64,000 nt of DNA from Oscillospiraceae bacterium (GTDB lineage Bacteria > Bacillota > Clostridia > Oscillospirales > JAAYXM01): NCBI GenBank assembly GCA_017439555.1, contig JAFSIZ010000186.1, positions 390 through 64,389 of the forward strand, read 5' to 3'. Position 1 is the first letter of the stretch; each line of letters opens with the position of its first letter. Of this stretch, positions 22,337 through 36,834 are shown piece after piece. The translations under genes and the position numbers were made by a program. The notes below the pieces were generated by a model. The model was not told where the DNA came from. It saw only the letters and a list, made by a program, of their open reading frames with translations, and did not search any database.

Positions 22337-23527
22337 ATGAACTACAACAAAAAGACAATCGAAGACATAAACCCGCAGGGTAAGCGCGTGCTCGTGCGTT
22401 GTGACTTCAACGTAAAGCAGGACGATGCAGGCAACATCACAGACGACAAGAGAATCGTTGCGGCTCTTCCGACAATCAAATACCTCATCGAGAAGGGCGC
22501 ACGTGTCATCCTTTGCTCGCACCTCGGACGTCCGAAGGGTGAGGTCAACCCGAAGTTTACTCTTGCTCCTGTTGCCAAGCGTCTTTCCGAGCACCTCGGC
22601 ATCGAGGTCAAGATGGCTGCTGATGTCATCGGCGAAAGCGCAAAGTCTCTTGCTGCTTCTCTTGCAGACGGCGAGGTTATGCTTATTGAAAACGTCCGCT
22701 TCCACAAGGAAGAGGAGAAGAACGATCCTGCATTTGCAAAAGAACTTGCTTCTCTTGCAGAGCTCTATGTAAACGATGCTTTCGGCACGGCTCACCGCGC
22801 TCACGCTTCCACTGCAGGCGTTGCAGACTATCTCCCGGCTGTCTGCGGCTATCTCATCGGCAAGGAGATCGGAATCATGGGTGAGGCTCTTTCAAACCCG
22901 AAGCGTCCGTTCGTTGCAATCCTCGGCGGCGCAAAGGTTTCCGATAAGCTCGGCGTTATCAACAACCTCCTCGAAAAGGTTGACACGCTCATCATCGGCG
23001 GCGGTATGGCTTATACATTCGCAAAGGCAAAGGGCGGCACAATCGGAACATCCCTCTGCGAGGATGACCGCCTTGAATATGCTCTTGATATGATCAAGAA
23101 GGCAGAGGAGAAGGGTGTCAACTTCCTCCTCCCGACAGACACTGTTGCTGCGACAGAGTTTGCGGCAGATGCAGAGAGTAAGGTTGTCCCGACACAGGCA
23201 ATCCCCGATGGCTGGATGGGTCTCGATATCGGACCGGAGACAATCGAGAAGTTCTCTGCTGCTATCAAGGGCGCAGGAACAGTTATCTGGAACGGACCGA
23301 TGGGCGTATTTGAGTTCCCGAAGTTTGCTGTCGGAACAGAGTCCGTCTGCGCAGCAGTTGCAGAGAGCGGCTCAATCTCCATCGTCGGCGGCGGCGACTC
23401 TGCTGCAGCTGTCAAGAAGCTCGGATTTGCAAAGAAGATGACACACATCTCAACAGGCGGCGGCGCAAGCCTTGAGTTCCTCGAAGGAATCGCACTCCCG
23501 GGCATTGCTTGCCTTGAGGATAAGTAA
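22337..23527 (+). CDS. pgk: Phosphoglycerate kinase
   Basis: 396 aa. Motifs [19 protein letters not shown] and GGGDSAAA. Confidence 0.95.
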
Positions 23528-23636
23528 GAATATAACAGAAGTATGCAGGGGCGGATATTATCCGCCCGCAGAAAATCATTAAATAAGTAAAAGGGGCGAA
23601 ACACCCCGTTTAATATATAAGGAGACATCAGTTAAA

Positions 23637-24407
23637 ATGAACAGAAAATATCGCAAGACAATTATTGCGGGCAACTGGAAGATGAACAAAACGCCCGCTG
23701 AGACAAAGAAGATGTTTGAAGAGCTCAAGGTCGCTTGTGGCAAGCAGAAGTGGTGTGACGTTGTGCTTTGCGTTCCGTTTGTGGATATCCCTGCAGCGGT
23801 AAGAGCAAGCCGCGATGCAAAGATCGCTGTCGCAGCGCAGAATATGCACTATGAGGAAAAGGGCGCATTCACAGGTGAGGTCAGCGCTGAAATGCTCAAG
23901 GAGCTCGGCGTCAAGTTTGTTGTCATCGGTCATAGCGAGCGTCGCGAATACTATGGCGAGACAGACAAGACTGTCAATCTCAAGGTAAAGAAAGCTCTCG
24001 AGGTCGGCCTTCGTCCGATCATCTGCGTTGGCGAAACTCTCGAGCAGAGAGAATTCGATGTAACGGCAGAGCACATCACAATGCAGGTCAAGATTGCGCT
24101 TGCCGGCGTTCCTGCAGAGAAGATGAGGAAGATTGTTTTTGCATATGAGCCCATCTGGGCTATCGGCACAGGTAAGACAGCAACTGCAGAGCAGGCTGAA
24201 GAGGTCTGCGGCCTTATCCGTGCAGTTATCCGCGCAAAATACGGCGCAAGAACAGCCCGTGCAGTAACTATCCAGTATGGCGGCTCGATGAATCCGAAGA
24301 ACGCAGCAGAGCTTCTCTCAAAGCCTGACGTTGACGGCGGTCTCATCGGCGGCGCATCTCTTAAGACGGAGGACTTTGCTGCTGTTATCAATGCAGCAAA
24401 CCAATAA
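23637..24407 (+). CDS. tpiA: Triosephosphate isomerase
   Basis: 256 aa. Motifs AGNWKMN, VIGHSERR, AYEPIWAIGTG and GGASL. Confidence 0.95.
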   Translation: MNRKYRKTIIAGNWKMNKTPAETKKMFEELKVACGKQKWCDVVLCVPFVDIPAAVRASRDAKIAVAAQNMHYEEKGAFTGEVSAEMLKELGVKFVVIGHSERREYYGETDKTVNLKVKKALEVGLRPIICVGETLEQREFDVTAEHITMQVKIALAGVPAEKMRKIVFAYEPIWAIGTGKTATAEQAEEVCGLIRAVIRAKYGARTARAVTIQYGGSMNPKNAAELLSKPDVDGGLIGGASLKTEDFAAVINAANQ

Positions 24408-24412
24408 TTGAT

Positions 24413-27279
<2,867 letters not shown>

Positions 27280-27396: not shown

Positions 27397-27426
27397 TTGA
27401 CAATAGAGAGTTTGATATGATATCAT
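27397..27426 (+). promoter_or_regulatory. Possible promoter of the Ubl-locus operon
   Basis: TTGACA, 18-nt spacer, TATCAT, about 120 nt upstream of the first ORF of the locus. Confidence 0.35.
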
Positions 27427-27547
27427 AAAGAATATGAAAAAAATGTTAACTGATCGGTGTATATGGTCATATAAAAGCGAAAAGTAAGGAAACTGCATCG
27501 GTGTGTTACAAGCCTTCTGAGGATAACGAATAAGGGTGGGATCAGGT

Positions 27548-28432
27548 ATGGATAAACAGAAATTCGCAAGCGATGAAGCTGCGCAGGAGATGACGGATGC
27601 TCAGGAGAGTGCACAGCCGGAAGAAGCTTCGGAAAATCCTGTCACAGAGCCATCGGTTGCGGAAAGCGCAGAGGAAAAGGCAGAGGAAAAGCGTTGCCCG
27701 GTATGTGCCGCGCTTCTTGAGGCCGATGCTGAGTTCTGCACAGAATGCGGCGCAGCTGTAAAACCGAAGTGCAAGGGCTGCGGTGCGACGCTTGAACCGG
27801 GGCAGATGTTCTGCACAGGTTGTGGTATGCAGGTCATACAGCAGGCGCCGCCTGCCGATGCTTCTGCAGTAAGCAGCGGTATAAATGAGTATAACAGCAA
27901 AATCGGCAAAAAGAGCAAGGCGAAGATTATAATACCTGCAATAATTGTTGCAGTGTTGTTGATTTTCGGTGCTGTCGGCGGATATATTGCTCACGTCGAG
28001 CGGATTCATCAGCAGGTGCTTGAGTTTACAGAGGATGTTATGGATTATACGGCGGAAGTAAACTCGGCAACAGTGGTTCTCAAGAACATAAGCGAGGCGT
28101 GGGATATCGTTGATAAAAGCTCCTATCTCTACAGAAGCGAGCTCAGAACCTATGCAAGAAACCTTTATAAGGATAACATCAGCGATGCAAAGGATGTAAA
28201 TGATGGAATCGTCGATAAATATAACGATATTATGAGCTGTGATATCGAAGATCCATATGTCGAGAGGATTCAGGATGCTGTGGAAAAAACTCACGATCTG
28301 TATCTTGTCATTTATGAGGATGTAATTGAGAATGAGTCGGGCGGAAATGAAGATAACGCAGACAAAGTCATTGAGTATATAGCAGACGTAAAAGCTGTTG
28401 TTGATGAAGCAACGCTTGATTATGCAAGTTAA
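27548..28432 (+). CDS. Double zinc-ribbon, TM, extracytoplasmic helical-domain protein
   Basis: CPVCAALL...FCTECG and CKGCGATL...FCTGCG. TM helix IIIPAIIVAVLLIFGAVGGYI. ATG 27548 is preferred over GTG 27536. Confidence 0.6.
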   Translation: MDKQKFASDEAAQEMTDAQESAQPEEASENPVTEPSVAESAEEKAEEKRCPVCAALLEADAEFCTECGAAVKPKCKGCGATLEPGQMFCTGCGMQVIQQAPPADASAVSSGINEYNSKIGKKSKAKIIIPAIIVAVLLIFGAVGGYIAHVERIHQQVLEFTEDVMDYTAEVNSATVVLKNISEAWDIVDKSSYLYRSELRTYARNLYKDNISDAKDVNDGIVDKYNDIMSCDIEDPYVERIQDAVEKTHDLYLVIYEDVIENESGGNEDNADKVIEYIADVKAVVDEATLDYAS

Positions 28433-28450: not shown

Positions 28451-29242
28451 ATGGACAACAAGTTATTACAGGAAATTGAAGCTTCTTTGAAAAACAGTGC
28501 AGCGCCTGCGGAGCCTGTAGCACCTGCAGAGCCCGTAGCACCTGCAGAGCCCGCAGCACCTGCAGAACCCATAGCACCTGCGGAACCCGTAGCACCTGCG
28601 ACACCGGTCAAGAGATGCCCGAAGTGTCAGGCTGTTATCGAAGAGGGACAGATATTCTGTGCAGAATGCGGAGAAGCCCTCGTGAAGAGATGTGCTCAGT
28701 GTGGGGCAGAGCTTGCGGAAGCTCAGGCATTTTGCGCACAGTGCGGCACGCGTGTCGCAGCAGCGCCCGTTGCGCCCAACCCTGTCTATAGCGCTCCTGC
28801 CGGAAATGCTCCGTTTGCAACGGATTCTGTTCCGAAGCCGCAGGGCGTGGACAAAAAGCTCCTTCCGCTGATAGCGATAGGCGTCTGTGCTGTTATTGTT
28901 GTAGTTATACTTGCAAAGACCCTCTTTGCAGGGCCTGCGGATTTTGAAACCCTTTATGCTGACAGATACGGCGCAGAGTCGTGGTGCGAAATCTCGTCTG
29001 ACGGCTCCTGGATGGAGATTGATACAAACCCGAATGACATTGATGACTATTACAGCTCATCTGCGCTCGATGCTGTTGAAACCGTCAACGAGGAGCTCGG
29101 TTTCTCGAGCTCGGTATATGAGAAGATGATGGAGACAAGGGCTCTTGACGGAAGACAGTATGATGAATGCGAAGACTATGAAATCAGCTGGTCCTACCAT
29201 CCGAACAGAGGTATGGACGTTATGTATGAGCTCAAAGATTAA
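28451..29242 (+). CDS. PAEPxA-repeat, double zinc-ribbon, TM, extracytoplasmic-domain protein
   Basis: (A/V)APAEP repeated 6 times. CPKCQAVI...FCAECG and CAQCGAEL...FCAQCG. TM helix LLPLIAIGVCAVIVVVILA. Confidence 0.6.
   Translation: MDNKLLQEIEASLKNSAAPAEPVAPAEPVAPAEPAAPAEPIAPAEPVAPATPVKRCPKCQAVIEEGQIFCAECGEALVKRCAQCGAELAEAQAFCAQCGTRVAAAPVAPNPVYSAPAGNAPFATDSVPKPQGVDKKLLPLIAIGVCAVIVVVILAKTLFAGPADFETLYADRYGAESWCEISSDGSWMEIDTNPNDIDDYYSSSALDAVETVNEELGFSSSVYEKMMETRALDGRQYDECEDYEISWSYHPNRGMDVMYELKD
28502..28606 (+). repeat. Coding tandem repeat, 18 bp x about 6 (APAEPV)
   Basis: Units of gcacctgcagagcccgta with synonymous or near-synonymous variation. Confidence 0.85.
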
Positions 29243-29260
29243 TGATTGGAGGAAATAGAA

Positions 29261-29887
29261 ATGACAATTAAAAGAATTGCTGCATTTATTCTCGCACTTG
29301 TTATGGTATTTACGCTTACGGGCTGCAAAAGCTCTGATTACAAGAAGGCTATGGCTCTCTTTGATGAAGGAAACTTCTCTGAGGCACAAGCGGCTTTTGA
29401 AGCTCTCGGAGATTATAAGGACAGTCTGAGCTATGCGGAAAATATCGGTTGGTATGCAGTGCGTGCACACATTCTTGAAAACGGCAAAATAGAATATGAA
29501 GCGACGGAAACTCTTATGCTCGAAATCGATATGATGGGCGATGATGTTATCGTAATCAGGGAATATATGGATGAAGATATTATGAAGTTCAATATTCAGG
29601 CGGAGCTCTCTCTTGGGGAAACGGTCGTTCCTTATAAGGCTGATATAGAGCTGATCATCGAAGGTGCAAGCGGAAAAGAAGCAGGAGTCGGAAAGCTTGA
29701 TATAGCGTCCTATAAAGAAGGCGATTCGATCAAGTGGGACAACTCGACCTGCTCACCGTATGAAGATCTTATAATTCTCAAGGATTTCTCAGGCCCGACA
29801 AAGACCTTTGTCGAAAATACAAAAAAGGCCATCGAGGCGGCCGGAATCAACATCACAATGGCAGAATTCGGATTTGAAAGCTATTGA
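29261..29887 (+). CDS. Lipoprotein; paralogue of the extracytoplasmic part of the Ubl-fusion ORF
   Basis: Signal peptide with lipobox FTLTGC. Blocks shared with 29920: F(E/D)xGN/EY..A...FE.LGDYKDS and the C-terminal ITMAEFGFESY versus ITLADFGFVSFE. GGAGG RBS before ATG 29261. Confidence 0.65.
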   Translation: MTIKRIAAFILALVMVFTLTGCKSSDYKKAMALFDEGNFSEAQAAFEALGDYKDSLSYAENIGWYAVRAHILENGKIEYEATETLMLEIDMMGDDVIVIREYMDEDIMKFNIQAELSLGETVVPYKADIELIIEGASGKEAGVGKLDIASYKEGDSIKWDNSTCSPYEDLIILKDFSGPTKTFVENTKKAIEAAGINITMAEFGFESY

Positions 29888-29919: not shown

Positions 29920-30936
29920 ATGGGAAAAGTAAGTGTAATTATCGTTGATGCAACAGGAAACAAGGAACAGAAGGTCGGCCTTCCGGACGATATCAAAATC
30001 GGAATCATTATGGTCAAGCTCGTCGAGAAGATAAAGCTTCCGTCCACAGGACCTGACGGCAACCCGATAAGCTATAAGTTTATCCACAAGGTCTCGGGGC
30101 GCCAGCTTCTCGAAACACAGACTCTTGCTGATGCAGGAATCAAGGACGGCGATGTTCTCAGACTTCAGCCTGAGATAACCGCTGGTGCAATCGGCAGAGC
30201 GCGAGGTGCGGTTTCGCGTTTTTTTAAGAAGGCCGCAGCTCTTGCGATTGCAGGTGTTATGCTGATTTCGCTCTGCGGCTGTGATATGCTCGATTATGGC
30301 AAAGCAAAAAAGCTCTATGAAAAGGGCGAATATAAAGAGGCTGTGACGATCTTTGAGAATCTCGGCGATTATAAGGACAGCGCAGACTATCTCAAAAAAG
30401 CGCGAGTCGAATGGTTCAAGGAATATGCCGAGGAAAACGGCGATGAAATAGGAGACGACAAGCGCATTACAAAAAGCTATAAAGGTGACAAAAACGACAC
30501 TTATATAGTTGCAATGGGTTCTGAGGGCGATATGATAGAGTTTGTAATTTTTGTCGACAAGGATCTTGAATTTGTTGAGTTTACCGACTTTATAAAGATA
30601 CACTTCAAGCCCGGCGCTTCGGAGGCAGACTTTACATATGACAGCACAATGACGATTGATTATAAAAATATTTCTGCAGAAAGCGAGAGTACCACGACGG
30701 GGGTTATCGATATTGCAAACTACACAAACTCCACAGTTGTAGAAGCGCTTACGTATGAGTATGAAGGCGTTGATGTCTCCGGCAATAAATCCAGTGAGAG
30801 CGGCGCTGAAAACGCAAAGATGACCGACTTCAACGACATCTACATAGATAATCTCTTTAACGGCTGTAAGGAAATTCTTGCAGAAACAGGTATGGGAATA
30901 ACTCTTGCTGATTTCGGCTTCGTTTCCTTCGAATAA
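29920..30936 (+). CDS. Ubiquitin-like (beta-grasp) domain fused to a TM/lipoprotein-signal-like segment and an extracytoplasmic domain
   Basis: Residues 1-89 end in QTLADAGIKDGDVLRLQPEITAG, a ubiquitin-like C-terminal strand with a terminal Gly. A basic stretch and ALAIAGVMLISLCGC follow, then a domain paralogous to the 29261 lipoprotein. AAGGAGA RBS. Confidence 0.65.
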   Translation: MGKVSVIIVDATGNKEQKVGLPDDIKIGIIMVKLVEKIKLPSTGPDGNPISYKFIHKVSGRQLLETQTLADAGIKDGDVLRLQPEITAGAIGRARGAVSRFFKKAAALAIAGVMLISLCGCDMLDYGKAKKLYEKGEYKEAVTIFENLGDYKDSADYLKKARVEWFKEYAEENGDEIGDDKRITKSYKGDKNDTYIVAMGSEGDMIEFVIFVDKDLEFVEFTDFIKIHFKPGASEADFTYDSTMTIDYKNISAESESTTTGVIDIANYTNSTVVEALTYEYEGVDVSGNKSSESGAENAKMTDFNDIYIDNLFNGCKEILAETGMGITLADFGFVSFE

Positions 30937-30965
30937 AACGTTTCTGCTTCGGAAGGTGATGAAGA

Positions 30966-32153
30966 ATGTCAATGGATATCGAATTTGAAAAGAATGATTT
31001 TGAAGAAAACCGATATTCCCGTCTTGAGCTGATTCCCTGGTGGAATCAGGAGCTTCTGCACAACTCGACTGTTATGGTAGTCGGTGCCGGGGCGATAGGA
31101 AACGAGCTTATAAAGAACCTTGCTTTGCTCGGTGTCGGAAAAATCGTTATTGTCGATATGGATAAAATTGAGCAGACAAATCTGACGCGCTCGATACTTT
31201 ACCGTATGAAGGATGTCGGCAAATACAAATCAGAGGCTGCGGCGCAATCTGCGATGGAAATAAACCCGGATGTGCGCGCAATATGCCTCAACAGCAACAT
31301 CGTGACGGATATAGGTCTTGGAGTGTTCAGGCAGATGGACGTTGTTCTGGGCGGCCTTGATAACCGTGAGGCGCGCCTTGCAATCAATCAATCGTGCTAT
31401 AAGGTGAACAAGCCGTGGATAGACGGCGCGATAGAAGTTCTCAACGGCTTTGCAAGAGTCTTTGTGCCGCCGGGGCCGTGTTATGAATGCACGATGACGG
31501 AGACTGACTGGAGGCTCATCAACAAGCGCAAATCGTGCGCGTTGCTGACTCACGACCAGATGCTTGAGGGGAAGACCCCGACAACTCCGACATCCTCGTC
31601 GGTTATTGCCGGCATACAGGTGCAGGAGATGCTCAAGCTTCTCCACAATGACAGAAATCTGCCGACGCTTGCCGGAAAGGGCTATGTGTTCAACGGGCTC
31701 ACCCACGATTCATTCGTTGTTGAGTATCAGCAAAAGGAAGATTGTATGAGCCACGACCTCTATGAGGATATACGTGAGATGCCGTGGTCAGCGCGCACAG
31801 TTTCGTTTGGTGACATCATAGAAGAGGCATCGCGTGAGCTTGGTGGATCGGTTGTCATAGAGCTTGACCGCGATATTGCGACGACGGCGACCTGCGTTTG
31901 CGGCCACAAAAAAGACATTTTCAACACGGTAAACCGCCTGCGCGGCAAGGACATAGTTTGCGAGAAATGCGGAAAGTCCATGCAGTTTGAGGCAATACAC
32001 ACGGTGACGGCGGATTCCGATTTCCTTGGCAGAAAGCTTTTTGATGTCGGTCTTCCGCTATATCACATAATCGCTGTGCGCAAAGGTATGAAATATATTT
32101 ATTATGAATTGTCCGCAGACAAGGACGAGGTTTTGGGAGGTCTGTTTGAATGA
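30966..32153 (+). CDS. ThiF/MoeB-type E1-like adenylyltransferase
   Basis: Rossmann/ATP motif VMVVGAGAIGNELIKNLALLGVGKIVIVDMDKIEQTNLTRS. CYEC and C..CEKCG cysteine pairs. Candidate catalytic Cys in KRKSCALL. Confidence 0.8.
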   Translation: MSMDIEFEKNDFEENRYSRLELIPWWNQELLHNSTVMVVGAGAIGNELIKNLALLGVGKIVIVDMDKIEQTNLTRSILYRMKDVGKYKSEAAAQSAMEINPDVRAICLNSNIVTDIGLGVFRQMDVVLGGLDNREARLAINQSCYKVNKPWIDGAIEVLNGFARVFVPPGPCYECTMTETDWRLINKRKSCALLTHDQMLEGKTPTTPTSSSVIAGIQVQEMLKLLHNDRNLPTLAGKGYVFNGLTHDSFVVEYQQKEDCMSHDLYEDIREMPWSARTVSFGDIIEEASRELGGSVVIELDRDIATTATCVCGHKKDIFNTVNRLRGKDIVCEKCGKSMQFEAIHTVTADSDFLGRKLFDVGLPLYHIIAVRKGMKYIYYELSADKDEVLGGLFE

Positions 32154-34180
32154 ATGCAAGAATGAGGAGAATCGCCTCTGACTACGAACAGATTAAAAAG
32201 AATTTTTCAAACCATAAAAACATTGTTGTTGAGCCTATCGGCGAAGAGCCTGCAGAGAAATACAGAGTTACATATTATGTAAACGGCATATATCTTCTCG
32301 ATGACGGCAGGATAGAAACTCTCGGAAAGCACATTGTTATAATAACGCTCCACGCGGAGTATCCGAGATACAAGCCGATATGCACAATAGCAACGCCGAT
32401 CTGGCATCCGAATTTCAGGGATGGGCAGATATGCATCGGAGATATATGGGGTGCAGGTGAATCCCTTTCCGATATTATCGTCAACATCGGCGATATGATT
32501 CAGTATAAGAGCTGGAATTCCTTCAGCCCGCTTTCGGCAGATGCCGCAGAATGGGCGATTGAGAACAAGCATCTCTTCCCTGTTGGAAACATAAATCTCT
32601 GGACGGGTGAGGAAGAGGACGGCACGGTCAAGGGCGATTTCGATATCGATATCTTCGATGGCGAAGACGCAGCAGAAGAGGCGGCTCCTGCAGAAGAAAC
32701 GGCGCCTGTTGAAGATGCCGTGCCGGCTGAAGAAGCTGCTCCTATTGAGGAGGCTGCGCCGGCTGAAGAAAACTTCAAGGAAACTCAGGCAAACGTCAAC
32801 GCAGCTCAGGGTGGAGATGTAAACGTTTCAGATTCCGGAAAGCTGAAGGAGGAGAGCCCGGCCTCGATTTCGGCGGTGTCATCTGCTCCGGCGGAGAAAG
32901 GTGACGAAGAGGATTTTGAGATAACCGCAGAGGAGCTTGCAGGAATAGAGTTTGTTCCGAGCGTTGTAAGAATGCAGGGCAGCCAATACGGAGCAACGGC
33001 AAAGGGCGGAAAGATAAATTTAAAGACTGTGCTTGTCAAGGGTCTGCTCTGGGCTCTCATAGGCGCATTCCTCGGCTTTGTTGTTTCTGAGATTGCAAAT
33101 CCGCTGATCGGCAATGCTGCCGTTGCGAGAATGCTCGGTCATTCAGAGCTTGCGGATTATTATGAATACACTGAGCTTGCGGATGAGGCTATTGCACCTG
33201 TAAACCGCGCGTTTGCCGATTATTGCAACAGAACAGGCAAGAATCCGAACAGTGAGGGCGTGCTCGAGGATTGGCTTGAGGCAAATTCCTCTGCCTATTC
33301 CGGCGCTATAGATCTCTATTCTGACTATGACGACAAGGCAGACGAAGCTCTTTATAATGCATATGAAGATGACTTTGCCTCGAATGAGGATGCACTCGGA
33401 GACGCTCTGGCCGGAATATCGAGAACGCACACAGCTCTCTGGTCGGGGATAATAGCTCTCTTTATAGGGCTCTTCCTCGGAATTGGTGAGGGTGTATACT
33501 ATGGCTCAAAGGAAAACGCGCTGAAATATGCGCTTATCGGCGCAGGTATCTCGATTGCTGTCGGCGCAGTGAGCGGATATCTCGCACAGTGGATGTATGC
33601 ATCTATGCTTTCGGATTATTCGTCAAGCATTGCTTCTGCGTTTGTGCGCGGTCTCGGATGGGCGATAATGGGCGCAGGCATTGGCTTGTCTATAGGTCTT
33701 ATCAAGCCTGAGCAGAAGAGAATCCTTTTCTGCACGCTCGGCGGCGTTATCGGTGCATTTATCGGCGGATTCCTGTTCAACTATGTCTGCGATATCATAC
33801 CCAATGACATAGTTGCCCGCGGAATTGCGATAATCATCATGGGGCTTCTTATCGGTGTCGGCGTCGGTATGCTTGAGCAGTTTGCAAAGGCGGCGTGGCT
33901 CAAGGTCATCAGAGGCGAATTTGAAGGTAAGGAATATCTTGTATTTGAGGGCAGAACATCAATCGGTAACAGCGGCAAGAACACAATTGTTCTCTTTAAA
34001 GACAAGCTTGTTGCTCCCGATCATTGTGAAATTGTTCAGGAAGGCACTAAATATGTTCTCGTTGACAAGGGCTCACCGATGGGAACTGTTGTCAACGGAA
34101 TGAGAATAACACGTCACGTTCTGCGTCAGGGCGATGCAATTGCAATAGGCAATTCAGTGCTCGTATTCAATATGAAATAA
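32150..34180 (+). CDS. E2 (UBC-like) domain, acidic PAEE linker, polytopic membrane region, C-terminal FHA domain
   Basis: RRIASDYEQIKK, EYPRYKP and IWHPNFRDGQIC(95)IGDIW give the HPN-x6-Cys E2 signature, with the Cys codon at 32432-32434. Several long hydrophobic helices lie at about 33040-33900. The FHA pattern is GRTSIGNS...APDHCEI...YVLVDKGSPMGTVVNG...L..GD.I.IG. ATGA overlap with the E1 gene. Confidence 0.75.
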   Translation: MNARMRRIASDYEQIKKNFSNHKNIVVEPIGEEPAEKYRVTYYVNGIYLLDDGRIETLGKHIVIITLHAEYPRYKPICTIATPIWHPNFRDGQICIGDIWGAGESLSDIIVNIGDMIQYKSWNSFSPLSADAAEWAIENKHLFPVGNINLWTGEEEDGTVKGDFDIDIFDGEDAAEEAAPAEETAPVEDAVPAEEAAPIEEAAPAEENFKETQANVNAAQGGDVNVSDSGKLKEESPASISAVSSAPAEKGDEEDFEITAEELAGIEFVPSVVRMQGSQYGATAKGGKINLKTVLVKGLLWALIGAFLGFVVSEIANPLIGNAAVARMLGHSELADYYEYTELADEAIAPVNRAFADYCNRTGKNPNSEGVLEDWLEANSSAYSGAIDLYSDYDDKADEALYNAYEDDFASNEDALGDALAGISRTHTALWSGIIALFIGLFLGIGEGVYYGSKENALKYALIGAGISIAVGAVSGYLAQWMYASMLSDYSSSIASAFVRGLGWAIMGAGIGLSIGLIKPEQKRILFCTLGGVIGAFIGGFLFNYVCDIIPNDIVARGIAIIIMGLLIGVGVGMLEQFAKAAWLKVIRGEFEGKEYLVFEGRTSIGNSGKNTIVLFKDKLVAPDHCEIVQEGTKYVLVDKGSPMGTVVNGMRITRHVLRQGDAIAIGNSVLVFNMK

Positions 34181-34301
34181 AAGCGGCGAAGGCAAAATAC
34201 AGATAGTATAATCAACAACGAAAGGGGGACAGTGTTACGCGTAAGCCAAAACACTGTCTCTCTGTCCGTTTTCACAAAAAGAAGGCAAGGAGTGAAACAG
34301 A

Positions 34302-35180
34302 TTGAGCAACCTGAGAAAAAAGGGCAGCAAGAAGAAAAAGGCCGTAAGCCGTGAGCTTTTGCCTGAGCTGCCGCAGAATATTTTCCCTGTAGGCGAGCGT
34401 GTTCTTGATAACAAAAACATATACATTCATCAGAAGGTCTATGCGCAGATTCATAAATTTGCTTCCAACAAAACGGAAAATGAGCACGGCGGAATTCTTG
34501 TCGGCCGTGTGGTCAATGAGATGGGCAAGGAAAACACAATAATAGAGGCGTTTATTGAGGCAAAATATAATGCCGCAACGCCGACAACATTGACCTTCAC
34601 TCACGAGACGTGGGAGCATTTCCATTCTGAAATGGACAAGAAATATAAAGACAGGAAAATCGTCGGATGGATACACACACATCCGAACTTCGGTATATTC
34701 CTTTCAGAAAACGACAGATTCATCCAGCAGAACTTTTTCACGGATGTAAATCAGGTCGCATATGTAGTTGACCCGATACAGAACGACGAAGGCTTTTTCT
34801 TCTGGGTTGACGGGCGGCTTGAGCGTTGCCCGGGATTTTATCTGTTCGATAAGGTCGGAATCAAGATAAGACAAAAGGCAATCTGGGAGAAGGGCTCTGA
34901 CGATGAGAATGAAGGCGGCGAAAAATCGTTTGGTACCGGAATACTTATCCCGATTCTCCTCGCTCTGATTGTTCTGGCAAATATGGTGCTTACGATAAAT
35001 CAGAATTCAAGGATGAACAGGCTTGCGCAAAAGCTTGCTCAGGCAGAGCAGGTCATCCAGAGCCAGATAATTATGATCAACGGCCTGAGAGAGCAGGTCT
35101 ATGAGCTTGAAGGCTATCATATGCCTGAGCCTCAGGAGGAGACAACGGAAAATACTGAAAAAGATTCAGAGAAGAAATAG
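34302..35180 (+). CDS. JAB/MPN (JAMM) metallopeptidase with C-terminal TM helix and coiled coil
   Basis: Glu in EAFIEAKY plus HTHPNFGIFLSEND gives a complete E...HxHx7Sx2D JAMM motif. TM helix GILIPILLALIVLANMVLTI. TTG start with an AAGGAG RBS. Confidence 0.78.
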   Translation: MSNLRKKGSKKKKAVSRELLPELPQNIFPVGERVLDNKNIYIHQKVYAQIHKFASNKTENEHGGILVGRVVNEMGKENTIIEAFIEAKYNAATPTTLTFTHETWEHFHSEMDKKYKDRKIVGWIHTHPNFGIFLSENDRFIQQNFFTDVNQVAYVVDPIQNDEGFFFWVDGRLERCPGFYLFDKVGIKIRQKAIWEKGSDDENEGGEKSFGTGILIPILLALIVLANMVLTINQNSRMNRLAQKLAQAEQVIQSQIIMINGLREQVYELEGYHMPEPQEETTENTEKDSEKK

Positions 35181-35193
35181 GAGGAGCGCAGAT

Positions 35194-36057
35194 ATGGATT
35201 ATACAGGAAAAATTTGCCCCTATTGCCAGACGGAATTCCGCGAAGGTGACGATATTGTCGTGTGCAGTGTATGCGAAATGCCTCACCATAAGGAATGCTG
35301 GATTGAAAACAAGGCCTGCACAACCTTTGGCTGCACAGGAACGATAAAGGGCGTTGACCAGAGCACAGAGGCGGCGATAAATGAGACGGAATGTGTAAGC
35401 TGCGGTGCAAAAATGAAGGCAGGGCAAAAGTTCTGTTCGAAATGCGGAGCGGCGGCAAGCAGCGGCGGGCCAAGATTTCAGGCGGCAGGAGCAAATATGC
35501 AGCAACCGTATGCAAATCAGCAGCCATACGCAAATCAGCAACCGTATGCAAATCAGCAGCCATACGCAAATCAGCAGCCGTATGCAAATCAGCAGCCGAT
35601 ATACGGACAGATGTGTGCTAAATATGATGCAAATGACCCGGTTATGATTGCGTTTCTTGAAAAGAATATAATGCAATACGTAAACATCTTCAATAATCTT
35701 GAGGCGAAAAACTCAAAGACATCCTGGAACTGGTGTGCATTTCTTTTTGGAGCAAACTGGTTTGCATATAGAAGGATGTATCCGCTCGCGGCAGCGATTA
35801 TCGGCGTTTCCTTTGTTCTCACTCTCTTCGGAGAGGTTGGAACTTTCCTGAGCCTGGCGATGTCTGTATGTCTTGGGATTTTCGGAAACTTTCTTTACAA
35901 GCAGCACATTGATGTTGAAAAACAGGCTTGTGCAGGTTTTGATGATGCAGGAAAAAGCGCTCATATAGCAAAGAAGGGCGGAGTAAGCGTGGTTTCGGTT
36001 GTTGTTATGTGCATCATTACATTCGTTCTGAATATGTTTTTTACAACTGTCGGGTGA
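35194..36057 (+). CDS. C4HC3 RING/PHD-like zinc finger, zinc ribbon, (QQPYAN)n linker, DUF2628-like multi-TM domain
   Basis: C-x2-C-x12-C-x2-C-x4-H-x2-C-x6-C-x4-C within KICPYCQTEFREGDDIVVCSVCEMPHHKECWIENKACTTFGC (nt 35215-35334). CVSCGAKM...FCSKCG zinc ribbon. WNWCAFLFGANWFAYRRMY is DUF2628-like. AGGAGG RBS before ATG 35194. Confidence 0.65.
   Translation: MDYTGKICPYCQTEFREGDDIVVCSVCEMPHHKECWIENKACTTFGCTGTIKGVDQSTEAAINETECVSCGAKMKAGQKFCSKCGAAASSGGPRFQAAGANMQQPYANQQPYANQQPYANQQPYANQQPYANQQPIYGQMCAKYDANDPVMIAFLEKNIMQYVNIFNNLEAKNSKTSWNWCAFLFGANWFAYRRMYPLAAAIIGVSFVLTLFGEVGTFLSLAMSVCLGIFGNFLYKQHIDVEKQACAGFDDAGKSAHIAKKGGVSVVSVVVMCIITFVLNMFFTTVG
35500..35600 (+). repeat. Coding tandem repeat, 18 bp x about 5.5 (QQPYAN)
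   Basis: cagca(a/g)cc(g/a)ta(t/c)gcaaat units. Confidence 0.85.
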
Positions 36058-36063
36058 TAGGTG

Positions 36064-36834
36064 ATGGAAGATTTCAACATTGAAATAATCGACAGCGGAG
36101 CGGCTTCGGCTACAAGGCCGCTTCCGTTGCCGAAGAATTTCGTGGCTGTTGGCGACGCCGGCGGAGATAGTGCGCAGATATATATAAAACAGGATGTCTA
36201 CAAGAGGATAGAAAAATTTGCAAAGGAGCAGATGTCCAAAGAGGTCGGGTCTGTTCTTGTCGGAGAATATGCCGTTGTCGGCGGCAGGAATACGGTTATC
36301 ATTTCCGATTTCATAGAGGCGAAATATACCGATGCCACAGCCGCGACGCTCACATTCACACACGATACCTGGGATTATATCAACCGTGAGCTTGAGACAA
36401 ACTATCAGGGTAAGGTGATAGTCGGCTGGCAGCACACACATCCCGGCTACGGCGTTTTTCTGTCGAGCTATGATATGTTCATTCAGGAAAATTTCTTCAA
36501 TCTTCCGTGGCAGATTGCATATGTTGTTGACCCGATTGCGGATACGAGGGGGTTTTTCGAATGGAAGGACGGAAAGGTCGTTCCGTCGGGCGGCTTTTTC
36601 GTGTATGACGCAATAGGCCGCAGGATAGACATTGATAAGCCTGTGAGCCTGCAAGGAAAAGGCTTTTCGAAGCTGAGCGTTATTCTTGCAATTCTGCTTG
36701 CGCTGTCTCTTATCGCAATGATATGGCTGACTGTCGAAAACGGAATTCTCAGGAACTATCACCATTCGATAGAACGCATTGAACAGGATCTCGAGGAGCG
36801 GGATCTGCCCATAAGAACAGATGACCTGATTTAG
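36064..36834 (+). CDS. Second JAB/MPN (JAMM) metallopeptidase with C-terminal TM helix
   Basis: EAKY Glu plus HTHPGYGVFLSSYD gives a complete JAMM motif. TM helix LSVILAILLALSLIAMIWLTV. Start is ATG 36064 or GTG 36061. Confidence 0.78.
   Translation: MEDFNIEIIDSGAASATRPLPLPKNFVAVGDAGGDSAQIYIKQDVYKRIEKFAKEQMSKEVGSVLVGEYAVVGGRNTVIISDFIEAKYTDATAATLTFTHDTWDYINRELETNYQGKVIVGWQHTHPGYGVFLSSYDMFIQENFFNLPWQIAYVVDPIADTRGFFEWKDGKVVPSGGFFVYDAIGRRIDIDKPVSLQGKGFSKLSVILAILLALSLIAMIWLTVENGILRNYHHSIERIEQDLEERDLPIRTDDLI

Follow-up and report, generated by a model that had tools for sequence, protein, structure and literature searches.

A UBC-type E2 domain fused to a predicted membrane region and an FHA-fold domain in a probable ubiquitin-like conjugation operon of Clostridia

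We analysed a stretch of 64,000 nucleotides (nt) from an Oscillospiraceae bacterium (assembly GCA_017439555.1, contig JAFSIZ010000186.1, positions 390 to 64,389 of the forward strand). This whole stretch is called the window; coordinates refer to it unless they follow a locus number such as L001, which denotes a related locus. The open reading frame (ORF) at 32150-34180 (+ strand) is intact in the window and encodes a protein of 676 amino acids (aa), in which an N-terminal ubiquitin-conjugating (E2) domain is joined to predicted transmembrane (TM) helices and a C-terminal FHA-fold domain. Genes for a ubiquitin-like protein (Ubl), an activating enzyme (E1), a RING ligase (E3) and JAB peptidases lie beside it. 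Because the catalytic motifs of the E2, E1 and JAB proteins are intact, the operon is conserved and the end of the Ubl is fixed, we consider it likely that the E2-TM-FHA protein is the E2 of a complete, membrane-tethered Ubl conjugation cascade of Clostridia. The features are listed in Table 1.

Table 1. Features of the fused protein and of the surrounding operon (window coordinates)
Feature	Position (nt)	Strand	Residues (aa)	Basis or remark
UBC-type E2 catalytic domain	32150..32599	+	1-150	UQ_con, PDB profile, AF2
HPN motif	32405-32413	+	86-88
Catalytic Cys codon	32432-32434	+	95
Acidic variable linker	32600..32908	+	151-253	Starts with tail motif DFDIDIF (aa 163-169)
Juxtamembrane motif EDFEITAEELAGIEFVPSVVRMQ, predicted cytoplasmic	32909..32977	+	254-276	Conserved
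TM1, predicted	33026..33094	+	293-315	Hydropathy; AF2 helix 291-315, region of pLDDT ~90
Acidic helical loop, predicted extracytoplasmic	33095..33430	+	316-427	~110 aa, poorly conserved
TM2-TM6 bundle, predicted, Gly-rich	33431..33880	+	428-577	AF2 pLDDT 80-95
FHA-fold domain, predicted cytoplasmic	33902..34177	+	585-676	Pfam, GarA alignment, column counts
Promoter-like site	27397..27426	+		TTGACA, 18-nt spacer, TG-TATCAT; 11/12 match, extended -10; consensus match only
Two zinc-ribbon single-pass membrane proteins	27536-28432, 28451-29242	+		Pfam DZR, Zn_Ribbon; one TM helix each
Lipoprotein, LTGC lipobox	29246..29887	+		Paralogue of the Ubl-precursor C-terminal extension, E 6e-16
Ubl precursor, 338 aa	29920..30936	+	Core 1-89	YukD-type core 29920-30186; extension 30187-30936
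E1, ThiF fold with C-terminal 4-Cys domain	30966..32153	+		Pfam ThiF 2e-54
JAB1, Rpn11-like JAMM peptidase with C-terminal TM helix	34302..35180	+		Pfam JAB 7.8e-12; HTHPx7SxxD
Membrane RING E3	35194..36057	+		Prok-RING_1 (6.4e-15), zinc ribbon, QQPYAN repeat, DUF2628 TM region
JAB2, second JAMM peptidase with C-terminal TM helix	36061..36834	+		N-terminal motif MMEDFNIEII

The fused protein

The Pfam model UQ_con (PF00179) matched residues 62-143 of the protein with 28.7 bits against a cutoff of 27. Searching the PDB with the first 158 residues returned E2 enzymes only, and HPN86-88 and Cys95 were aligned with the HPN and the catalytic Cys of 2e2c. A profile of 12 E2-domain sequences retrieved 260 E2 sequences from the PDB at E<=1e-3, the best at 1.8e-10. 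The AlphaFold2 (AF2) model of residues 1-160 alone, built on more diverse sequences, reached a predicted local distance difference test score (pLDDT) of 90 and a predicted template modelling score (pTM) of 0.86. Foldseek found 389 PDB matches to the E2-domain model at E<=1e-3; the top 50 were almost all UBC E2 chains, with template modelling scores of 0.58-0.70. The family column counts, conservation values and loop charges given here and below were taken from 76 family sequences, in which the HPN motif and Cys95 are invariant and conservation of the E2 core is 0.96. Sequence comparison and structure prediction together show that the N-terminal domain is a UBC-fold E2 with HPN and the catalytic Cys95, as an earlier reading made from the DNA letters without database searches (the sequence-only reading) had proposed for this 676-aa ORF.

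That reading had placed four parts in the order E2 core, acidic PAEE-rich linker (about nt 32668-32770), polytopic membrane region and FHA module, and this order was borne out. The PAEE-rich stretch was located at residues 170-207 (nt 32657-32770) and contains a 36-nt tandem repeat at nt 32675-32771; block conservation of linker residues 181-240 is below 0.12. The membrane region was also found, and it is not the single block of about 290 hydrophobic residues that had been described: it consists of TM1, an acidic loop and TM2-6. AF2 helices in the loop region span residues 332-362, 371-408 and 413-450, the last of which continues into TM2. Conservation is 0.3-0.4 in the outside loop and 0.6-0.87 in the TM helices. 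The loop is absent from the two unfused TM-FHA homologues compared by BLASTP, which aligned with residues 427-676 (L081) and 559-671 (L083) of the query. The mean net charges of successive loops are +3.1, -12.2, +1.7, -2.3, +2.5, -1.5 and +1.0. Because there are six TM helices and the loop charges follow the positive-inside pattern, the E2 and FHA domains are both predicted to be cytoplasmic, i.e., on the same membrane face, with the acidic loop outside.

Among the candidates scored in a search of 5.8 billion proteins, at least 786 protein clusters were related to the query. The top 120 are 62-100% identical to it and mostly full-length, and PF00179 and PF00498 occur together in all 120. A scan of one genome per species yielded 80 loci, almost all in Clostridia (Oscillospiraceae, Acutalibacteraceae, Lachnospiraceae and Christensenellaceae among them), and the E2-TM-FHA fusion is intact in 77. 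Cultured carriers include Massiliimalia massiliensis, Clostridium weizhouense, Clostridium sp. LS, Tissierella creatinini and Lachnospiraceae MC2017/LC2019. In addition, independent gut-metagenome contigs span the window sequence at both gene junctions of the E2 (E1/E2 and E2/JAB1) and from the E2 across the linker to TM1. Since the same architecture recurs in relatives and loci and the junctions are covered by metagenome contigs, we concluded that the fusion is real, and a misassembly of two genes, which the sequence-only reading had named as a finding that would refute it, was ruled out. One NCBI record has a 349-aa version of the protein starting at Met328, apparently a truncated TM-FHA protein that arose through gene calling or through disruption of the gene.

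The operon and its modifier

Five component types (Ubl, E1, UBC E2, RING E3 and Rpn11-like JAB) are encoded together at 29920-36834 of the window, and also in most of the 80 loci, of which 78 have an E1, 72 a JAB, 71 a Ubl and 66 a RING. The order Ubl-E1-E2TMFHA-(HtrA-like protease)-JAB-RING-JAB recurs widely, and all window genes are on the + strand. The E1 stop codon overlaps the E2 start (ATGA). GxGxxG, D132, C172xxC175 and C191 are invariant in the E1, and the JAMM motif is intact in both JAB1 and JAB2. The best PDB match of JAB1 is the 'Rpn11-like protein' 6fjv (4e-9), which we take to be the Caldiarchaeum enzyme; Rpn11 is also among its best solved relatives. The likely start of the RING gene is the ATG at 35194 (MDYTGKICPYC), equivalent to the start of the L001 homologue (MDFIGKICPYC); the mechanically called ORF begins at 35101, which gives it an 80-nt overlap with JAB1. 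Every operon component except E1 carries a membrane anchor. An HtrA-like serine protease with a TM helix at each end is encoded between E2 and JAB1 in 59/80 loci, including the closest relatives (L001 9938-10792).

The Ubl core (89 aa) matched Pfam YukD with an E value of 2.5e-12. Across the Clostridia loci it is 64-95% identical, mostly 82-93%, compared with 41-76% for the E2 protein and mostly 59-86% for E1. The core ends in ...DGDVLRLQPEITAG (LRLQPEITAG, G89) in every intact locus. In 11 loci Gly89 is followed by a stop codon; elsewhere there is a variable tail of 1-9 aa, or a zinc-ribbon membrane protein or lipoprotein fused in frame; the window Ubl is fused in frame to a lipoprotein precursor that has its own signal peptide and lipobox. 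Because the core end is fixed at Ala-Gly and the extensions are disposable, this arrangement argues for the logic of a ubiquitin-like precursor, in which Gly89 would be exposed by a peptidase and then activated. With its YukD match, an Ala-Gly end and no Gly-Gly, the modifier falls outside the ubiquitin family proper.

An acidic alternating motif with the consensus hydrophobic-E/D-I-x-L/I (e.g., DFEIDIL) was found at the termini of several operon proteins. It stands at the extreme C-terminus of the HtrA-like protease in 56/60 loci. In 24/38 loci the N-terminus of the second JAB has the strict motif (36061-36100 for window JAB2), which the first JAB shows in 0/38. For the E1 N-terminus (window 30966-31010) the strict pattern was counted in 11/72 sequences, and hydrophobic-E/D-L/F was seen by eye in 24 of the 25 N-termini printed. 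The E2-TM-FHA protein carries two copies. Copy 1, DFDIDIF at residues 163-169 (32636-32656, I166 invariant), is equivalent to the C-terminal tails of stand-alone E2s; copy 2, DFEITAEEL at residues 255-263 (32912-32938), is equivalent to the N-terminus of unfused TM-FHA proteins (KIEITYEEL, RIEITLEDL). DF[DE]I occurs in 72/78 family members vs. 6/559 unrelated ORFs, and RING, zinc-ribbon and Ubl proteins seldom carry the motif (3/203). The distribution suggests that the motif docks, as a beta-strand peptide, on one shared hub, for which the Ubl and the FHA domain are candidates; SUMO- and Atg8-interacting motifs provide an analogy for docking of such a motif on a Ubl.

Several further observations were made on the operon and its flanks. 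The promoter-like site lies between eno and the first operon gene, and homologues of the zinc-ribbon proteins are encoded in 40-45 of the 80 loci. The 121-nt gap between E2 and JAB1 (34181-34301) holds a hairpin, GACAGTGTT...AACACTGTC, and in metagenome runs X1 and X2 one nt is missing at 34281. In the RING gene, an 18-nt tandem repeat of 5.5 copies (35500-35598) encodes QQPYAN; the contig of metagenome run X6 skips 54 nt there, so the copy number of the repeat varies between strains. A zinc-ribbon gene (28501-28599, APAEPV) and the E2 linker (32675-32771) have similar repeats. Upstream of the operon are the glycolytic genes pgk, tpi, gpmI (iPGM) and eno (window 22337-27279). This flank occurs in none of the 80 related loci, and the chromosomal position of the operon is therefore not conserved. 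In 20-22 of the 80 loci, an XRE-type helix-turn-helix gene and a gene for an ImmA/IrrE-like metallopeptidase with a TM helix lie directly upstream (L001 3271-4542; L007 2533-5004), and in 7/80 a tyrosine-recombinase-like (integrase) gene is found beside this pair; the window is without all three. The pair and the recombinase hint at stress- or element-linked regulation.

These neighbours bear on whether the operon could be a conflict or anti-phage system that tags invader proteins at the membrane, as in bacterial Bil (BilABCD) or the Cap2/Cap3 branch of CBASS (cyclic-oligonucleotide-based antiphage signaling system). In such a role, E2-TM-FHA would be a membrane sensor as well as a conjugase; the question is one of role and is compatible with the same chemistry. 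The upstream XRE/ImmA-like pair, the occasional integrase and the unconserved genomic position point that way, as does a HEPN/nucleotidyltransferase pair adjoining the operon in L086. Bil and CBASS share with this operon bacterial E1, E2 and JAB chemistry that involves a Ubl or the C-terminus of a target, whose E1 and JAB match the PADLOC E1-E2 and JAB models. However, their E2s are divergent, they have no RING E3 and their proteins are soluble, whereas here a UBC domain with HPN and a RING E3 are held in membrane-anchored proteins. The E1 and JAB hits are generic, and PADLOC matched none of the E2, Ubl, RING and zinc-ribbon proteins. In an NCBIfam scan of the operon proteins no model reached its cutoff, 6A-MBL cap2_3 falling far below. 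No match was found in 50,697 phage records, and plasmids gave distant single-domain matches only. The identity of the Ubl across families, about 90%, is unusually high for fast-evolving defence genes, and the window operon sits after a glycolytic gene group. On balance, we regard a defence function, and with it a sensor role for E2-TM-FHA, as unlikely.

The FHA domain and the origin of the fusion

Residues 603-667 matched Pfam FHA (PF00498) with an E value of 9e-13, residues 585-674 matched Yop-YscD_cpl with 1.9e-12, and the FHA domain of GarA was matched with 5e-8. In FHA domains, an Arg, a Ser and an Asn touch the phosphopeptide, and a Gly and a His are structural. The GarA alignment pairs saGRh with siGNs, vSrrH with vApdH and gSlNGT with gSpMGT, so that the contact positions are occupied in the query by N607 (Arg), A622 (Ser) and M644 (Asn). 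Across the family, the Arg is replaced by Asn in 74/76 sequences, the Ser by Gly or Ala in 68/76 and the Asn by Met in 63/76. Gly606, His625 and Asn649 are retained, and conservation of the FHA domain is 0.95. The sequence-only reading had called this module a canonical FHA domain and had pointed to the 'GR' at residues 601-602. This pair was rejected as the FHA Gly-Arg, since 64/70 sequences have Thr in place of R602 and the true position in the GarA alignment is G606-N607. The fold holds; the qualifier does not, because the phosphothreonine-contact triad is replaced family-wide.

The same reading went on to suggest Ubl transfer gated by Ser/Thr phosphorylation, i.e., an FHA domain that binds phosphothreonine on a partner or substrate, with a Hanks-type kinase and a phosphatase switching the transfer. 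Apart from the fold itself, three things can be said for this. Ser is kept at its position in 6/76 family members; PrkC-type kinases are encoded elsewhere in the genomes of most Clostridia; and the more distant TM-FHA proteins, the only ones that keep Gly-Arg, are encoded beside VWA, DnaJ-FHA, PP2C and Ser/Thr kinase genes (L088). Against these stand the substitutions at all three contact positions and the neighbourhood: no kinase or phosphatase family recurs within 8 kb across the 80 loci. Moreover, the closest stand-alone TM-FHA relatives, those of Ubl operons, form a sub-clade with Gly-Ser or Gly-Asn in place of Gly-Arg. With the contact residues lost and no such enzyme recurring nearby, phospho-gating is unsupported, and we consider it very unlikely. 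Because the distant Gly-Arg relatives sit among phospho-signalling genes, the TM-FHA module was apparently taken over from phospho-signalling and ceased to bind phosphate afterwards.

FHA domains without the phosphothreonine residues have been described in EssC (PMC4925161), and in type VIIb secretion YukD binds and stabilises the FHA domains of YukB (PMC12637312). By analogy, the FHA domain of the fused protein might act as a phospho-independent docking module, for the Ubl or for partners that bear the acidic motif; we propose this role tentatively, as something possible rather than probable.

The separate history of the two halves is visible in more distant relatives. A search of 1.84 billion representatives gave 161 matches below 1e-30; among the best 150 of them, 7 have the full architecture, 104 only TM2-6 and FHA, and 39 only the E2 domain. 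The E2-only representatives are 37-81% identical to the query, and complete stand-alone proteins 44-50%. In L081, L083, L086 and L087, a stand-alone E2 (49% identical) adjoins or lies near a separate TM-FHA gene. The gene order is JAB-LysM, RING, E2, JAB, TM-FHA, RING in L081 and RING, E2, TM-FHA, YukD, ThiF, JAB in L083; L086 and L087 contain the same parts together with trypsin-like proteases and a second E2. The L081 TM-FHA protein is 32% identical to query residues 427-676 (E 1e-29). Because E2 and TM-FHA are separate neighbouring genes in these related operons, the window protein is, judged by gene order and alignment, the product of a fusion between a soluble-E2 gene and a TM-FHA gene. 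TM2-6 plus FHA is, on the same comparison, the ancestral, separately encoded module. In unfused operons (L086 3445-6174; L087 1175-6283; L082 2614-7031) there are genes for two distinct UBC E2s and as many as four Prok-RING proteins per operon, so more than one E2/E3 pairing would be available in them.

Proposed pathway and related systems

From homology and operon logic, the following pathway is proposed. An Rpn11-like JAB peptidase would trim the YukD-type Ubl precursor after Gly89; the ThiF-type E1 would adenylate Gly89 and hand the Ubl to Cys95 of the E2; and the membrane RING E3 would promote discharge of the Ubl onto lysines of proteins at the inner membrane face. The JAB peptidases would also undo the modification. 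The zinc-ribbon membrane proteins of the operon itself are candidate substrates. With less assurance, the FHA domain under the membrane may bind the Ubl non-covalently, in the way that YukD is held by the YukB/EssC FHA domains, or it may hold the acidic motif of E1, E2, JAB2 or the protease.

A number of results weigh against this pathway or parts of it. In the AF2 model of the full-length protein, the E2 domain reached a pLDDT of only 30-70 and FHA residues 586-621 fell below 50; the alignment was shallow, all sequences being at least 62% identical. Searched with Foldseek, this model had no match at E<=1e-3, and its membrane domain matched nothing informative; the model contains no confident contact between the motif and the FHA domain. 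The match of the Ubl to a solved archaeal ubiquitin-like protein was weak (E 0.1). The HtrA-like protease was searched for throughout the window and not found; because this protease is present in 59/80 loci, the window copy may be an incomplete version of the operon. Among the sequencing runs that hold the locus no RNA evidence was found, all of them being DNA gut-metagenome runs. Finally, YukD of B. subtilis was reported to be non-conjugated, and membership of its family does not by itself predict conjugation (PMC1779556).

The last point leads to a different account, in which no conjugation takes place: the Ubl would act as a non-covalent factor in assembly, much as in type VIIb secretion, where YukD is described as a structural protein and binds FHA domains (PMC12637312), and the E2-like domain would be a mere scaffold. 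There is a real likeness, since type VIIb secretion also combines a YukD-family Ubl with a membrane protein whose cytoplasmic FHA domain lacks the phosphothreonine residues (PMC12637312, PMC4925161). By contrast, the Ubl studied here is encoded with E1, E2, E3 and deubiquitinase-type partners and has a C-terminus predicted to be processed. HPN and Cys95 are invariant, the nucleotide-binding and Cys motifs of E1 and the JAMM motifs are intact, and the Ubl core keeps its Ala-Gly end, the extensions behind it being disposable. FtsK-type EssC ATPase, EssB pseudokinase and WXG100 genes were absent from the recurring neighbour families of the 80 loci and from the scanned window genes. In view of this, a purely non-covalent role is hardly credible, and a conjugation cascade remains the preferred interpretation.

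One of the closest parallels to such a cascade is the operon of Caldiarchaeum subterraneum and Asgard-type archaea. An archaeal Ubl/E1/E2/RING/Rpn11 operon has been reconstituted in vitro (PMC5654768, PMC6043591), and the Caldiarchaeum Rpn11 processes pro-ubiquitin (PMC6043591). The two systems share the five component types, a UBC E2 with HPN, an Rpn11-like JAB and a modifier made as a precursor in need of trimming at its C-terminus. They differ in that the modifier here is a YukD-family Ubl ending in Ala-Gly, whereas theirs is a ubiquitin ending in Gly-Gly. All components but E1 are membrane-anchored here, the E2 is fused to six TM helices and an FHA domain, and the hosts are bacteria (Clostridia); an HtrA-like membrane protease and zinc-ribbon membrane proteins are additional parts in most loci.

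In eukaryotic endoplasmic reticulum (ER)-associated degradation, a tail-anchored E2 (Ubc6/UBE2J) works with TM RING ligases such as Doa10 and Hrd1. The likeness is one of analogy only: in both cases E2 and RING E3 are held at the membrane with their catalytic domains in the cytoplasm, which suggests that the clostridial cascade may modify membrane proteins. However, the anchor here is polytopic instead of a tail anchor, an FHA module is present, and the comparison carries no implication of common descent of the anchors. We know of no proteasome or Cdc48 in Clostridia.

YukD-like Ubls are said to have been proposed by Burroughs, Iyer and Aravind in 2011 to be conjugated by Prok-RING_1/E1/E2/JAB systems. 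According to the part of PMC7159879 in which that 2011 work (Mol Biosyst 7:2261) is cited, the operon class of YukD-like Ubl, E1, E2, prokaryotic RING and JAB was predicted computationally, and the window operon probably belongs to the same class. Our full-text literature search, for which Burroughs et al. 2011 stood outside the comparison, found no experiment on, or description of, an E2-TM-FHA protein. Nor, within the same limits, were the phosphate-blind FHA domain of the fusion, the pairs of fused and unfused proteins or the shared motif found described. The sequence-only reading had not recognised the domain combination from characterised systems; this agrees with the lack of experimental work in the literature searched, although the operon class as such had already been predicted.

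Beyond the cascade itself, the data allow a broader and more speculative picture, which we regard as conceivable but rather improbable in all its parts. Gut Clostridia would possess a self-contained membrane ubiquitin system in which a YukD-family Ubl, of a kind known so far only from non-covalent assembly, is conjugated covalently, the enzymes are brought together by docking of the acidic motif on the Ubl or on the phosphate-blind FHA domain, and the whole, together with the HtrA-like protease, forms a counterpart of ER-associated surveillance or signalling for membrane proteins. If the operon is active, it would represent a bacterial E1, UBC-E2, RING-E3 and Rpn11-like system on the membrane that is common in Clostridia of the human and animal gut, and it would show that proteins of the YukD family can serve as genuine covalent modifiers. 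In its degree of conservation the modifier is roughly on a par with ubiquitin. The fusion provides a handle on the membrane tethering of an E2 and on the role of phosphate-blind FHA domains, and the cultured carriers make the cascade directly testable.

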